Of a stretch of DNA of 64,000 nucleotides, positions 40,429-44,761 are shown in pieces. This stretch comes from a virus. Its lineage: Duplodnaviria; Heunggongvirae; Uroviricota; Caudoviricetes. The notes beneath the pieces were generated by a model. That model did not search any database. It had not been told where the DNA came from and saw only the letters and a list, made by a program, of their open reading frames with translations. Position numbers and translations under genes: made by a program. The stretch is taken from the IMG/VR virus record IMGVR_UViG_2778261161_000002. One strand, written 5' to 3'. The stretch's first letter is position 1. Every line of letters begins with the position of its first letter.

Positions 40429-40926
40429 TCACTCTCCTTTGATGCGAATGCCAGTGGTACTCATTCTCCTGATTTCCCAGAGCACACGAGGAACACCACC
40501 GTTTCCGACCGGATCGCGTTTACTCCGCAGGGCGACGCTTGATTCCGCCCAGCTTTTTCTTGGAGGAAGCTCTTTCACACGAACAAAACCAGCTGCGCGA
40601 AGAGATGCTCCTGATTCATCTGCCTGGGTGTACGTAATACAACGTTGATAACCCATAGCTTTTGCTGCCCGCCAGATAGCACCATAAAGCGCGCTGTTAG
40701 CGTTGCGTTCTCCTGTGGTACATGTGCGATTTACTTCAAGCGTTAATCCATCGTCCAAATGTCGTGCAACAGGTCTACCGGCTGTCGCCACACCTATCAA
40801 TTCTCCGGCATCATTTCTCAGACCAATGCTGAATTTATGCCCCACCGGGGGTTTATTGTGTCGGTGATGTCTGGATATAAACGCCTTCGCAACACGAAGA
40901 GTAACCGGTGAAATCTGCACTCTCAC
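40429..40926 (-). CDS. Hypothetical protein, 165 aa, ends GIRIKGE
   Basis: ORF track; 3' end shares 25-bp direct repeat with next gene. Confidence 0.45.
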   Translation of the reverse strand: MRVQISPVTLRVAKAFISRHHRHNKPPVGHKFSIGLRNDAGELIGVATAGRPVARHLDDGLTLEVNRTCTTGERNANSALYGAIWRAAKAMGYQRCITYTQADESGASLRAAGFVRVKELPPRKSWAESSVALRSKRDPVGNGGVPRVLWEIRRMSTTGIRIKGE

Positions 40927-41399
40927 TCTCCTTTGATGCGAATGCCAGCGGCGCGTGGCACATTAACTTCCACGATGCGCACTGTTGGTTTGTACATCTC
41001 AATTGCTGTCAGCCAGTCAGTTCCTGTCATGCGCTTTTCTGCATCGCCATTAGTCCACTGAACTGGTACACCAATAGCCTTCATCGCGATTTCTATTTCC
41101 CCGGCAATGGCGCTTTTTCCGCAACCAGTAAAACCAGATACAACGACAAGAACTTCGCCTTTTGCTGGTTTTATTTCCCGCGCCTCCACCTCTGCAATTC
41201 GGCACATAGCATCGATATTTGTGTCTTCCTGGCGTTTAACTTCATCCAATAATGCCAACGCGATATCTGGCGAAAAGTGCTTCATAAAATCGTTAAGCGC
41301 ATTAATTCGCTGATCGAAAGGCATTACAGGCGCTTCACCAGCAATTTTTGTTTTTTCAGCAATTTCACGAAGCTTTTGATAGTCAATTTTGTTTGTCAT
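40923..41399 (-). CDS. Hypothetical P-loop-like protein, 158 aa, ends GIRIKGE
   Basis: GFTGCGKS; ORF track. Confidence 0.45.
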   Translation of the reverse strand: MTNKIDYQKLREIAEKTKIAGEAPVMPFDQRINALNDFMKHFSPDIALALLDEVKRQEDTNIDAMCRIAEVEAREIKPAKGEVLVVVSGFTGCGKSAIAGEIEIAMKAIGVPVQWTNGDAEKRMTGTDWLTAIEMYKPTVRIVEVNVPRAAGIRIKGE

Positions 41400-42274
41400 G
41401 CCACTACCTCTTCGAATTTCAACTCCAATTGGTCACCCCAGATTTCACATGATTCGGAACACGAACCAGTATCAAACCGCTTGGCCTGCACCATCGCCTG
41501 ATACAAATTTCTGTAGTCGCTGTCGGCATACATTCTGGCAATCCCGTCAAGCGTCAGGTGACCACGGTACATAACGTCTTTACCTGTTCTGCGATGACCA
41601 TCCCTGACGTGTTTGCCTGTAACCAGTTCATTAAAAACCCGCATCAGACCTGGTTCGTCTTTACATGCAAGCCCCAGCTTTTGCGTTGACTTTTTGATGC
41701 AAAAAACACAGTTCCCGAGGTGCTCCGGGATTTGCAAATCAAAAGGTTGTTTTCGCCACCACCGGATAACATCCGACTTATCAAAATCTGACAGCTCGGC
41801 AAGATACCGGACGCCCGGTTTCGGTTTCAGCCTACGGGGTTCGTCCGCACGAATACCCAGCCATGTGATGTAATTCCCTCGCCCAAAATGGTCATCGCAA
41901 TATTTCGTGAAAGGGGTGAGTTTTAGCCTGTCAGTACAGAACGCGCCGCCGATGTATGGCGTACCGTACTTTTTAACCATGTCCATAAACGGTTTAAGCA
42001 CCGGCATTCGCGTCTGAATATCCTTTGGTTCCCATTCCGTATAACCATTTGGCTGCCCAAGTTCTGGATTTATATCGACCTGCAACACCGTTAGCGGTAC
42101 ATTCCAGAACTTCACAACCTCACGAATAAAGCGATACGTCAGAGGATGTTCACAGCCGGTATCCATAAAAATGAAATGGACGCTAGCGCCAGCTTTTCGC
42201 TGTGCTTCCATCAGATGAACGAGATAAGCCGATGTTCGTCCACCTGAAAAGCTGACGACTTGATGCATACTCAC
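41396..42274 (-). CDS. PAPS reductase-like (PP-loop ATP pyrophosphatase family) protein
   Basis: PP-loop SFSGGRTS near N-terminus; Cys-rich C-terminus. Confidence 0.6.
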   Translation of the reverse strand: MSMHQVVSFSGGRTSAYLVHLMEAQRKAGASVHFIFMDTGCEHPLTYRFIREVVKFWNVPLTVLQVDINPELGQPNGYTEWEPKDIQTRMPVLKPFMDMVKKYGTPYIGGAFCTDRLKLTPFTKYCDDHFGRGNYITWLGIRADEPRRLKPKPGVRYLAELSDFDKSDVIRWWRKQPFDLQIPEHLGNCVFCIKKSTQKLGLACKDEPGLMRVFNELVTGKHVRDGHRRTGKDVMYRGHLTLDGIARMYADSDYRNLYQAMVQAKRFDTGSCSESCEIWGDQLELKFEEVVA

Positions 42275-42277
42275 GGT

Positions 42278-42970
42278 TTATTCCTGAACGCGCTTAAACT
42301 CGATTACCCATACCCACGGGTTAGATAGCCAGTTATCCTGCCCGTAAATACTGCGCCAGATATCACCAAAACCAACGCGATAAACAGCTTCCGGCGGCGT
42401 AATTTTGTACATCGCCGGAGATGCGCCTTCTGCTTTAGCATCTGCCTCGCTCATATCACGCAGCCGTTCCACACGCACGTCGGTAATTTCCAGCAAAATG
42501 CGCGATGCCCAGCGCGGCATGTGAATTGATGGACGCCACCCGCCATCAAATTTTTCATTCACAGTGTGAGGTTTCCAGTCGGCATCATCGGGTATCGACC
42601 ACAAGCCGTAATCACCCGGCTTTTGCTCACAACTGGCCCGATAAATCCTTGCTGCGTTCTTCTCATCGCCACGACAAAGGTTGTCGTTCCAGTCCACACT
42701 GCAACCATCCTCATTGCCTAATATCGCCCACGCCTCACGGACCCATATGCGATCACCAACGTTACCGAACGGGCATAAACCATGTTCAGGTGCATCCATA
42801 ACGTGGGTATAGACACCATTGCGTTTCTTGGTCGGTTTACGGATAACCAGGCAGTTATCGGCCCTGACATTTTTTACAGGTCGGCGAGTCTGCGTCTTCC
42901 TTCCTTCGAGGATGGCCCTGACCATCTCATCGTTAAAAATCATCCCGCGTTCTTTCATTTTTTGATCCAC
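42278..42970 (-). CDS. ASCH-like domain protein, 230 aa
   Basis: MIFNDEMVRAILEGRKTQTRRP. Confidence 0.4.
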   Translation of the reverse strand: MDQKMKERGMIFNDEMVRAILEGRKTQTRRPVKNVRADNCLVIRKPTKKRNGVYTHVMDAPEHGLCPFGNVGDRIWVREAWAILGNEDGCSVDWNDNLCRGDEKNAARIYRASCEQKPGDYGLWSIPDDADWKPHTVNEKFDGGWRPSIHMPRWASRILLEITDVRVERLRDMSEADAKAEGASPAMYKITPPEAVYRVGFGDIWRSIYGQDNWLSNPWVWVIEFKRVQE

Positions 42971-42974
42971 CTCA

Positions 42975-43970
42975 TCAGTTATTGAACGTGATCACTCCGC
43001 GCTCGATGGCGAAGTCGAAAAGCTGGTTAGCTGCTACGTAAAGGCGTATGCCATGTGCTTTTTCCCATGCCCGGACATCGTTTTCTGCGCTTCTGGCGCA
43101 GTCATCGCAAAGAGGAACAGCCCAGCGGTCGTGTTCGTTTAACGAGCGGGCGCGGTACATGAATGGGTGATTAACCTTGCCGCCGCAGCCTACACACGGG
43201 CGAGACACCACAAACCGGAGATAAGCCGGGCTTTTTCCGAGTAAGGTTTTTGGACGGCGCATATATAGGAGGCCAGAATCTTCATCGACGGACAGATTGA
43301 CGATCTGCTCTGCGGAAATATCCACCAGCTCGCGGGTACTATGCTCCCAGGTAATATCCGACTCTTTCAGAGTGCCGGTAGGGATTTCAGTTTTTGGCTG
43401 ACAAAATGCAATGCGACCAGCTTCATCAGGCAGTTCGTCTTTAAGATTCCGGCGAATGGCCCAAAAGGTGAGTTCAACCATGCTCAGATCGCGATCTGGC
43501 GGAAGTTTTAACTCGCTGGCAGCCCAGTTCATAATCCAGTTGGCGCGATTCAGTGACAGTTGGTCTTCCAGCTTGCCGTATCCCTTCATCATGTATTCCG
43601 CATCATGCTTCCAGCACAGGCGAACGGCAGAACCGTTATAGAAATGGGTGGTTAACTGGTGGCTGCAATCGCGCTTATCATGCGCCTGGCAATCGTGAAT
43701 GTTGGTGCTAACCCAGTGAACGAGAGAATCCTCACCACCTAACGCGTTAAATACGCGCTCACTTTGAAAAAAGGGTGCCAGTGACTGGTTGGTAACCAGT
43801 GAATAATTCAGGTCAACGACACCATCAGGGGTGTTTTCAGCCTGTTCACGCGGCAATGGGGATATAAGAAAACGACGTCCTGCGCCGATGTAATTGCTGG
43901 TGGGCTTATCTACAGGAAAGACAGCCACACCAGTTTCATTTACGACATATGGGGTGATTATTGCACTCAT
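42975..43970 (-). CDS. Hypothetical protein with C-terminal Cys cluster, 331 aa
   Basis: CVGCGGKVNHP ... CDDCARS. Confidence 0.45.
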   Translation of the reverse strand: MSAIITPYVVNETGVAVFPVDKPTSNYIGAGRRFLISPLPREQAENTPDGVVDLNYSLVTNQSLAPFFQSERVFNALGGEDSLVHWVSTNIHDCQAHDKRDCSHQLTTHFYNGSAVRLCWKHDAEYMMKGYGKLEDQLSLNRANWIMNWAASELKLPPDRDLSMVELTFWAIRRNLKDELPDEAGRIAFCQPKTEIPTGTLKESDITWEHSTRELVDISAEQIVNLSVDEDSGLLYMRRPKTLLGKSPAYLRFVVSRPCVGCGGKVNHPFMYRARSLNEHDRWAVPLCDDCARSAENDVRAWEKAHGIRLYVAANQLFDFAIERGVITFNN

Positions 43971-44068: not shown

Positions 44069-44761
44069 TCAGACTTTAAGCTGCCCTCCCTTCACCTGCA
44101 TTAGCGTCAGATTTCCGCAAAAAACCGCGCCCGTGTCTATGTAGTGCTGATTCCAGTATGCTTTTGGTCTTCGTACCGGTGTGTGCCCAAAGATAAAGCG
44201 ATCTGCGCCTGTAATTTCTCCACCAATGCCATCTATCGAATCACCGACGCGACTGCGCGACCAGACAACATCAAAAAGCGACACATCCTTACCGAACTGG
44301 TACTCTCCACCTGGATAGTCGGCATGGGCTATAACGATAGTTTCATGCCCGGTGTTCAACTCAATGATATATGGCAGACGCTTTACCAGCTCCACCAGCG
44401 CCCTGGCTAATATTTCCTGATCAGCGTCCAGCATGAAGAACCATTGTCCGCCATTCATTAGCCAGTTATTCACGTTGCCATCAGGACTTAACGCATCGAT
44501 CATTAATCGCTCGTGGTTTCCCATAACCGACCGAAACCAGGGCATCTGCAATAGCTCCAGGCATTCAACATTTTCGGTGCCGCGATCGATAAGGTCGCCA
44601 ACCGATATCAGTAAATCCTGCGCCGGGTCAAAATCCACACGATGGAGTTCGGACATCAGTCTGGTGTAGCAACCATGCAGATCACCAACAACCCATATGT
44701 TTCTGTAGCCAGAACCATCAATACGGCTATATAAATTCACTTCATGCATAGCCTGTGTCAT
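44069..44761 (-). CDS. Ser/Thr protein phosphatase (lambda PPase-like metallophosphatase)
   Basis: GDLHGC, GDLIDRG, GNHE motifs. Confidence 0.8.

Follow-up and report, generated by a model that had tools for sequence, protein, structure and literature searches.

Lambda NinC, a PmgT-like ASCH-fold protein and a DUF968 protein as neighbours in a P1/D6-like phage-plasmid, and a possible role of NinC against phosphorothioate-based defence

Do three tightly spaced genes of a phage-plasmid, which code for a PP-loop protein, an ASCH-like protein and a Cys-rich protein, work together in the modification of nucleic acids, and what is the function of the PP-loop protein? This question is raised by positions 41396-43970 of a stretch of 64,000 nucleotides, referred to as the window, from the IMG/VR virus record IMGVR_UViG_2778261161_000002. 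A first-pass annotation had read the three genes as a candidate modification module. All three proved to be real minus-strand open reading frames (ORFs) at these positions, with the SFSGGRTS motif of the PP-loop protein intact. According to nucleotide searches, the ~24 kb around the trio can be aligned over 61% of their length to the P1-like phage-plasmid of Escherichia known as phage D6, with 95.6% identity, and have backbone genes in common with P1 and P7. The 8 kb around the trio are 99.7% identical to ~93-kb non-mobilizable E. coli plasmids, for example CP057047. The window is a D6/P1-like E. coli phage-plasmid.

The answer that emerged from our analysis has two parts. We are highly confident that the trio consists of three independent cassettes and that the PP-loop protein is NinC of phage lambda. 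A broader reading, in which the region resembles the nin region as an array of accessory genes that are independent of one another and NinC is probably an active, Cys-rich PP-loop enzyme that counters phosphorothioate-based defence, has in our judgment about an even chance of being correct. The first-pass interpretation as a whole was partly supported: its family assignments and its anti-defence flavour were retained, and the single module was not.

NinC and phosphorothioate-based defence

The PP-loop protein is the orthologue of lambda NinC (lambdap64). Both proteins have equal length and the same motifs, and they align without gaps, with 228 of 285 residues identical (80%). The DNA of the gene is ~93% identical to the gene annotated as NinC in Stx phages, and at the protein level there is 100% identity to a cluster that comprises 1130 sequences and bears the name ‘phosphoadenosine phosphosulfate reductase family protein [E. 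coli]’. The assignment to the phosphoadenosine phosphosulfate (PAPS) reductase family, for which profile searches had been proposed as a check, was confirmed by such searches and by fold comparison. The Pfam model PAPS_reduct (PF01507) scored 37.7 bits against a cut-off of 22.5 (E = 2.8e-9), with only residues 6-72 aligned, and phrog_424 matched end to end (residues 2-291, E = 5e-93). The AlphaFold2 model (pLDDT 86.7), which is confident except for the C-terminal tail bearing C272 and C276, is similar to solved PP-loop enzymes, and the modelled fold is that of PP-loop enzymes which catalyze adenylation and sulfur transfer.

The N-terminal motif V6-V-S-F-S-G-G-R-T-S15 is a canonical PP-loop (S8-x-S-G-G-x-x-S15), whose residues S8, S10, G11, G12, R13 and S15 were invariant among 43 NinC homologues with 51-93% identity. 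Also invariant in this set were the DTG motif (D38-T-G40) and the cysteines C113, C126, C189, C192 and C276, and C272 was conserved in at least 90% of the sequences, resulting in the arrangement C113, C126, C189-x-x-C192 and C272-x3-C276. Conservation of all these elements favours an active enzyme over a decoy. Additional NinC matches of 80% identity were located on low-coverage contigs, several of them ~48.4 kb long (L237, L239, L242-L244, L246 and others), from assemblies of unrelated taxa such as Pseudomonas, Oceanobacillus, Neobacillus, Shewanella and a Chromatiales metagenome-assembled genome. These contigs look like contamination with phage lambda, because the query and lambda NinC itself share 80% identity.

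Ever since the sequencing of the lambda genome, NinC has remained an orphan, and our search of the literature on NinC yielded essentiality data only. None of the genes lambda ninC, P1 pmgT and P1 pdcB is essential under laboratory conditions (PMC10695390), which fits accessory or anti-defence genes. Of the PADLOC defence models, SspD matched NinC best (E = 1.8e-13), followed by BrxP (E = 2e-4) and DndC (E = 5e-4). The SspD match covers the N-terminal half only, with NinC residues 5-148 on profile positions 2-121 of 277. DndC, SspD and BrxP belong to the same superfamily as NinC, and they share with it an intact PP-loop and a high cysteine content, whereas NinC with its ~290 amino acids (aa) is much shorter than DndC (profile lengths ~450-480). 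The label ‘DndC-like’ used by the first-pass annotation is loose, and NinC was rejected as a bona fide DndC, with 17.8 bits for the DndC equivalog TIGR03183 against a cut-off of 290.4. DndC, according to literature reviewed by Rakesh et al. (PMC10853773), is an ATP pyrophosphatase of the PP-loop type that has a [4Fe-4S] centre held by three cysteines and a Cys dyad proposed to be the sulfur carrier. By analogy, the six conserved cysteines of NinC could fill the roles of this Fe-S centre and Cys dyad.

The suspected link to anti-defence was strengthened by a protein of Vibrio phage 44E38.1, p0018 (479 aa), annotated as ‘Dam methyltransferase with PAPS reductase domain’. Its PAPS domain is 55% identical to NinC over 283 residues (E = 1e-110) and has the PP-loop and the GAFCTDR, GNCVFC and GSCSESCE motifs in common with NinC, whereas C41 of NinC is not conserved there. 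Lambda-type NinC is therefore a close and full-length homologue of the only PAPS-domain protein that has been tied to an anti-defence phenotype, namely the escape from Dnd. Swapping p0018 and p0019 into a sister phage led to plating on a host whose remaining barrier was Dnd (Piel et al., 10.1101/2021.05.05.442762), and a later paper, in the passage citing this case, refers to it as a phage PAPS reductase promoting Dnd evasion. JSS1_004, another candidate for a ‘phage PAPS reductase anti-Dnd’ protein, was rejected, as it is actually a kinase and shut-off protein and unrelated.

Fusions to Dam (PF05869) were present in 4 of the 120 closest clusters of NinC homologues, including the 44E38.1 protein, and the fusion of relatives to this DNA methyltransferase suggests that the NinC family acts on DNA. 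In the mechanism that we propose, NinC would use ATP to adenylate a target, which would be DNA, and would relay sulfur via a Cys-bound Fe-S cluster and the flexible C-terminal Cys pair, as is thought for DndC and SspD. As a result, phage DNA that enters the cell or is being replicated would receive a mark or a shield against restriction of the DndFGH type, which attacks DNA lacking phosphorothioate.

That NinC is an active enzyme countering phosphorothioate-based restriction through an inferred mechanism of this kind remains a tentative reading, whose chance we put at even or slightly below. Several points weigh against it. The anti-Dnd role is assigned to NinC itself by homology and not from an experiment on NinC, and the Fe-S cluster and sulfur relay are read from cysteine conservation alone. 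The similarity of NinC to DndC is marginal, as seen from the equivalog score. DndC needs DndD and DndE for site-specific phosphorothioation, and no such partners occur near NinC: neither DndA/IscS, DndD or DndE nor SspA, SspB or SspC was found beside NinC in the window or conserved in 60 species-level loci. While p0018 carries a fused C-terminal Dam domain, NinC in the window ends at residue 292 without one. The Vibrio swap comprised two genes, with the PAPS domain fused to Dam, and the PAPS domain alone is unproven as sufficient (10.1101/2021.05.05.442762). Furthermore, three cloned Dnd systems continue to restrict lambda, whose efficiency of plating (EOP) on them is 0.016-0.3 (PMC10470545). 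Because lambda is restricted despite being ninC+, NinC would be at best a partial counter-measure, unless the stock was nin-deleted; the nin genotype of the lambda stock is not stated in that paper, so a nin deletion is possible. The strongest of these Dnd systems conferred up to 10^5-fold protection against lytic coliphages (PMC10470545), and lambda is therefore hit comparatively mildly.

An activity of NinC on RNA or a small molecule in place of phosphorothioate defence, such as tRNA thiolation (TtuA, NcsA, TtcA), lysidine-type chemistry (TilS) or cofactor sulfuration (LarE), is unlikely. The conserved Cys pattern would be compatible with a [4Fe-4S] thiolase, and lambda keeps ninC although its K-12 host has no Dnd. 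However, NinC is a single domain of 290 aa that lacks an RNA-binding accessory domain, SspD is the model of a defence system or family that comes closest to it in sequence, the fusions of its relatives involve a DNA methyltransferase and not RNA-binding modules, and Dnd escape is the sole phenotype known for the NinC family. For the connection to tRNA modification or BREX that the first-pass annotation had also raised, no evidence was obtained.

It is quite unlikely that NinC counters Dnd or Ssp without modifying DNA, as a mimic of DndC or SspD which titrates IscS/DndA, DndD/E or DndFGH or which drains persulfide. Such a mimic would agree with the fact that the N-terminal half of NinC is homologous to SspD and DndC and with the stand-alone occurrence of NinC without specificity partners, and partial protection would suit the intermediate EOP of lambda on Dnd hosts. 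On the other hand, the strictly invariant PP-loop, DTG motif and cysteines suggest selection for catalysis, and a lower level of host phosphorothioation would leave unmodified phage DNA exposed to DndFGH.

A more far-reaching proposal is that the members of the NinC family, including lambda NinC, are stand-alone, DNA-directed PP-loop/Fe-S sulfurtransferases without DndD/E-type partners, which would equip temperate coliphages with a portable ‘self’ mark that counters Dnd, Ssp and BREX-4 and, in P1-like phage-plasmids, might be coupled to PmgT as an eraser or processing enzyme. We regard this proposal as improbable. If it were true, NinC would add phosphorothioate, or a different mark of the backbone or of a base, to phage DNA, and the coupling to PmgT would account for the position of NinC directly behind four divergent PmgT alleles. 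As to the reading preferred here, NinC as an enzyme against phosphorothioate-based restriction, its link to Dnd is concrete and could be tested cheaply by simple phage genetics.

Gene neighbourhoods of the trio

The trio is located inside a long co-directional minus-strand array of small genes, which extends from ~47.5 kb to ~37 kb. The intergenic gaps among the three genes measure 3-16 nt, and the two genes next downstream have 4-nt overlaps. A scan of the region from 36 to 50 kb detected nine promoter-like sites, which is fewer than the 20.3 expected by chance from shuffled sequence, and also gave terminator-like hairpins on the minus strand. Each of the three proteins has hundreds to thousands of homologues, and copies with 99-100% identity exist in many E. 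coli plasmids. The genes of the trio are not new and occur throughout the mobile elements of E. coli, and their finding is in itself ordinary.

The co-occurrence of all three genes was restricted to a subset of E. coli P1/D6-like elements. Relatives exist which possess only DUF968 and NinC, only DUF968 and ASCH, or only ASCH and NinC. In D6, the DUF968 gene is present and the ASCH and NinC genes are absent, and lambda and Stx phages have NinC alone of the trio. Among the relatives, nucleotide homology breaks at gene ends. In one of them (L093), the stop of the DUF968 gene is joined to the start of NinC and the ASCH gene is missing, in two others (L007 and L057) homology ends just past the NinC start codon, and all NinC-bearing relatives lose homology at position 41393, 3 nt beyond the NinC stop.

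The neighbours of the genes varied in a similar manner. In 80 close loci, the gene upstream of NinC coded for an HD-domain-like protein in 54 cases, an ASCH protein in 12, DUF968 (directly upstream) in one and other proteins in 13. An intact or truncated NinC gene was located downstream at 7 of 79 ASCH loci, with a 23-codon stub at one more, and the neighbours of the ASCH gene were otherwise very varied. At the species level (60 NinC-family loci on genome contigs), an ASCH gene was present within 4 kb of NinC in two loci and DUF968 in three, and no other partner of NinC was conserved beyond lineage-specific synteny. The distant loci in this set were obtained from the genome-contig scan; a scan of viral contigs with the NinC alignment gave the same close relatives only. 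This pattern is classic modular mosaicism of accessory genes. The three genes are probably co-transcribed neighbours, and since each is exchanged independently, we conclude that they do not form a functional unit.

In P1-like elements, NinC copies of 98-99% identity follow four PmgT alleles (57-100% amino-acid identity) with the same spacing of 6-7 nt. Recombination within the conserved 3' end of pmgT is the simplest explanation for this observation, which is the only hint of a link between pmgT and ninC.

It is very improbable that the trio is one nucleic-acid modification module, in which the PP-loop protein would activate or thiolate a base or the backbone, the ASCH protein would read or trim, and the Cys-rich protein would target or nick. 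This view can draw on the tight, co-directional packing of the genes, nucleic-acid-related folds or motifs in all three proteins, the conserved position of NinC behind four different ASCH alleles, and DNA methyltransferases that adjoin some ASCH homologues. However, the distribution of the genes has already refuted it to a large extent, considering that every sub-combination is found in nature with joints at gene ends, that D6 lacks two of the three genes and lambda NinC stands alone, and that the two candidate partners are as rare near NinC, and NinC near ASCH genes, as the above counts indicate.

Two further observations concern the NinC loci. In most loci of the Stx-phage type (L108 and 53 other loci), the protein encoded immediately upstream of NinC has 182 aa and resembles an HD phosphohydrolase (…FAGHL…H…HD…). 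In the near-identical relative L003 (4697-5416), NinC is frameshifted to a 239-aa ORF with a divergent tail, and in relative L013 (4733-4801) it is reduced to the 23-codon stub. The NinC cassette is lost or decaying in some lineages.

PmgT-like protein, DUF968 protein and further genes of the array

The ASCH-like protein, encoded between NinC and the DUF968 gene (Table 1), has the ASCH beta-barrel fold according to structure comparison, consistent with its initial designation. The Pfam ASCH model scored below its gathering threshold (18.2 bits against 21.2, E = 0.004), and the protein matched phrog_874, a family without assigned function. Searches of PDB sequences with the single sequence and with a profile, also after deletion of an insertion described below, gave nothing usable. 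A tblastn search retrieved 348 phage records, including P1-like, Pseudomonas, Vibrio and Salinibacter phages. The homologue in P1 is 68% identical and encoded by the gene after pap, which is pmgT based on the gene order listed in PMC10695390. Homologues in Pseudomonas phages are annotated in one case as PmgT and in another as ‘ASCH domain-containing N4-acetylcytidine amidohydrolase’.

In an alignment to YqfB of E. coli K-12, the residues G23-R-K25-T-Q-T28-R-R30 of the PmgT-like protein correspond to G19-R-K21-T-I-T24-I-R26 of YqfB, E181 corresponds to E74, and the final VIEFK strand is identical. K25, T28 and E181 were invariant in 36 homologues, and R30 was conserved in at least 90% of them. 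In YqfB, K21, T24 and R26 are essential, and the exchange E74A reduces turnover 100-1000-fold (PMC6972931). The PmgT-like protein thus keeps the catalytic Lys, Thr, Arg and Glu of YqfB, whereas H70 of YqfB is replaced by an invariant Asp (D177). It is also approximately twice as large as YqfB and contains an insertion of ~75 residues as well as an additional helix at the C-terminus. The insertion (residues ~80-155) is poorly modelled and splits the ASCH core. Because the Lys-Thr-Arg-Glu set of YqfB is retained in an ASCH domain, the PmgT-like protein is predicted to be plausibly an active YqfB-type amidohydrolase, which most likely would act on N4-acyl-cytidine-type bases in nucleosides or RNA and would work independently of NinC. 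The mean pLDDT of its model, which is only 58, speaks against this prediction. According to a 2026 preprint, diverse ASCH proteins remove N4-acetylcytidine from tRNA. At 4 of 79 PmgT-like loci (L038, L055, L074 and L079), visual inspection suggested that a neighbouring gene codes for a DNA methyltransferase (Dam-like, D12-class or C5-like).

The Cys-rich protein was identified as a member of the DUF968 family. Pfam PF06147 matched over its full length (profile positions 1-171 of 171) with 153.3 bits against a cut-off of 27.8 (E = 8e-45), and phrog_96 matched with E = 8e-104. The protein is 94.9% identical to orf98 of D6, 38.7% to P1 PdcB (full-length) and ~26% to YdfU-type proteins, whose E. 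coli representative YdfU is encoded by the Qin prophage. Its cysteines, which the first-pass annotation had correctly noted, form CxxC pairs at 259-262 and 288-291 within a C-terminal Cys/His motif (C259-x2-C262, H268, H280-D281, C288-x2-C291). An alignment of six DUF968 sequences showed C259, H268, H280-D281 and P286-L287 to be invariant and C262 and C288 to be mostly conserved; in the N-terminal half, the motifs C94-Q and L118-C-W..D123 were invariant. Two clades could be distinguished, a YdfU clade with the full set of HH…H..LH histidines and a P1/D6 PdcB clade that lost several of them. ‘HNH endonuclease’ is the label given to the DUF968 protein by RefSeq and PHROGs. It is unsupported by Pfam, as no HNH model of this database matched even at E = 10. 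With its CxxC…H…HD…CxxC pattern, and with replacements of the distal histidines that the YdfU clade keeps, the C-terminal motif looks, as judged from the sequence, like a partly degenerate HNH-like zinc ribbon, and the protein probably binds or nicks nucleic acids. The DUF968 gene is part of the D6/P1 backbone. It follows ppp in the window, whereas in the lambdoid phages that were examined (L319 and L322) the YdfU-type gene lies a short way upstream of Q.

Table 1 Coordinates of the trio and of further genes in the array.
Feature	Coordinates	Strand	Details
NinC-family PP-loop / PAPS-reductase-superfamily protein	41396..42274	-	292 aa from GTG, or 290 aa from ATG at 42268
P1 PmgT-family ASCH-fold protein	42278..42970	-	230 aa from GTG; probable ATG 42958, giving 226 aa
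DUF968 protein, homologue of P1 PdcB and E. coli YdfU	42975..43970	-	331 aa
Ppp / NinI-type Ser/Thr phosphatase	44069..44761	-	Pfam Metallophos E 1e-15; 64% identity to lambda NinI
Ead/Ea22-like protein	40923..41399	-	Pfam PF13935 E 2e-6; 4-nt overlap with NinC stop codon
XF1762-family Mom-like GNAT, 165 aa	40429..40926	-	NCBIfam NF045478 E 8e-61; phrog_1384 ‘Mom-like DNA modification protein’ E 1e-41
ORF of 126 aa	39994-40374	-	phrog_4301; protein-kinase-like strings DAKPENFG … KLDYGE
Second ASCH-type protein, 106 aa	38511-38831	-	phrog_625; canonical GxKxxExR motif as GEKTEEYR

Alternative start codons exist for two of the genes. For the PmgT-like gene, the ATG start is likelier than the GTG because it is preceded by a GAGGTGG ribosome-binding site at a distance of 8 nt, and the annotation of plasmid CP057047 also uses this ATG. 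Lambda NinC begins at the Met that is equivalent to the ATG of the NinC gene in the window.

The phosphatase gene is a backbone gene immediately upstream of the trio. The gene of the Mom-like GNAT is situated two genes downstream of NinC. Pfam Mom recognized this protein only with E = 1e-4, and it matches positions 21-159 of the PHROG profile, which has 245 positions. As judged from this profile and not from a comparison with Mu Mom itself, the Mom-like GNAT may lack the helix-turn-helix-like insertion that is essential in Mu Mom (PMC13219725). Its gene is absent from plasmid CP057047 and from all 79 ASCH loci and is thus not co-conserved with the trio. Because of this absence (79 of 79 loci), the idea that the Mom-like GNAT and the ASCH protein are paired as writer and eraser was rejected. 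With the 106-aa protein, the array contains two different ASCH proteins. The kinase-like motif in the 126-aa ORF found no support in searches of Pfam or PDB sequences; this ORF could encode a truncated or mini kinase-like protein, or the resemblance could be due to chance. The array also holds DUF551, DUF4752 and DUF7446 proteins.

Comparison with CysH and with phage lambda

PF01507 is common to NinC and to E. coli CysH and the adenosine phosphosulfate (APS) reductases, which are the best solved-structure matches of NinC by sequence and in Foldseek (TM ~0.39-0.49). However, CysH has the degenerate loop SSSFG where NinC has SFSGG, and the C-terminus of NinC reads GSCSESCEIWG and does not contain the catalytic ECGLH tail of CysH. 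NinC was rejected as a CysH-type reductase by the NCBIfam cut-offs, with 21.9 bits against 154 for PRK02090, 14.8 against 165 for TIGR00434 and 13 against 254 for TIGR02057. The least probable explanation of NinC is that it is an auxiliary metabolic gene, i.e., a CysH-type PAPS/APS reductase which boosts host sulfate assimilation during infection or lysogeny: database names and Pfam agree with it, as do the closest solved structures, and phage ‘PAPS reductases’ are often read in this way in the literature (10.64898/2026.02.18.706556), but the alignment is limited to the N-terminal ~70-100 residues, the NinC PP-loop is of the canonical ATP-binding type, a cysH gene is already present in E. coli, some relatives carry a fused DNA methyltransferase, and an anti-Dnd phenotype has been linked to a relative with 55% identity. 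Phage ‘PAPS reductases’ are still routinely taken as auxiliary genes of sulfur metabolism.

In lambda, NinC is also encoded in an array of small dispensable genes together with the NinI/Ppp phosphatase, as in the window. The immediate neighbours differ, with lambda ninC located between ninB and ninD and the gene studied here located between the PmgT-like and the Ead/Ea22-like genes of a P1/D6-type phage-plasmid. The array resembles an accessory region of the lambda nin/ea type that was transplanted into a phage-plasmid, and a variable region of this kind is a place where anti-defence genes are expected.

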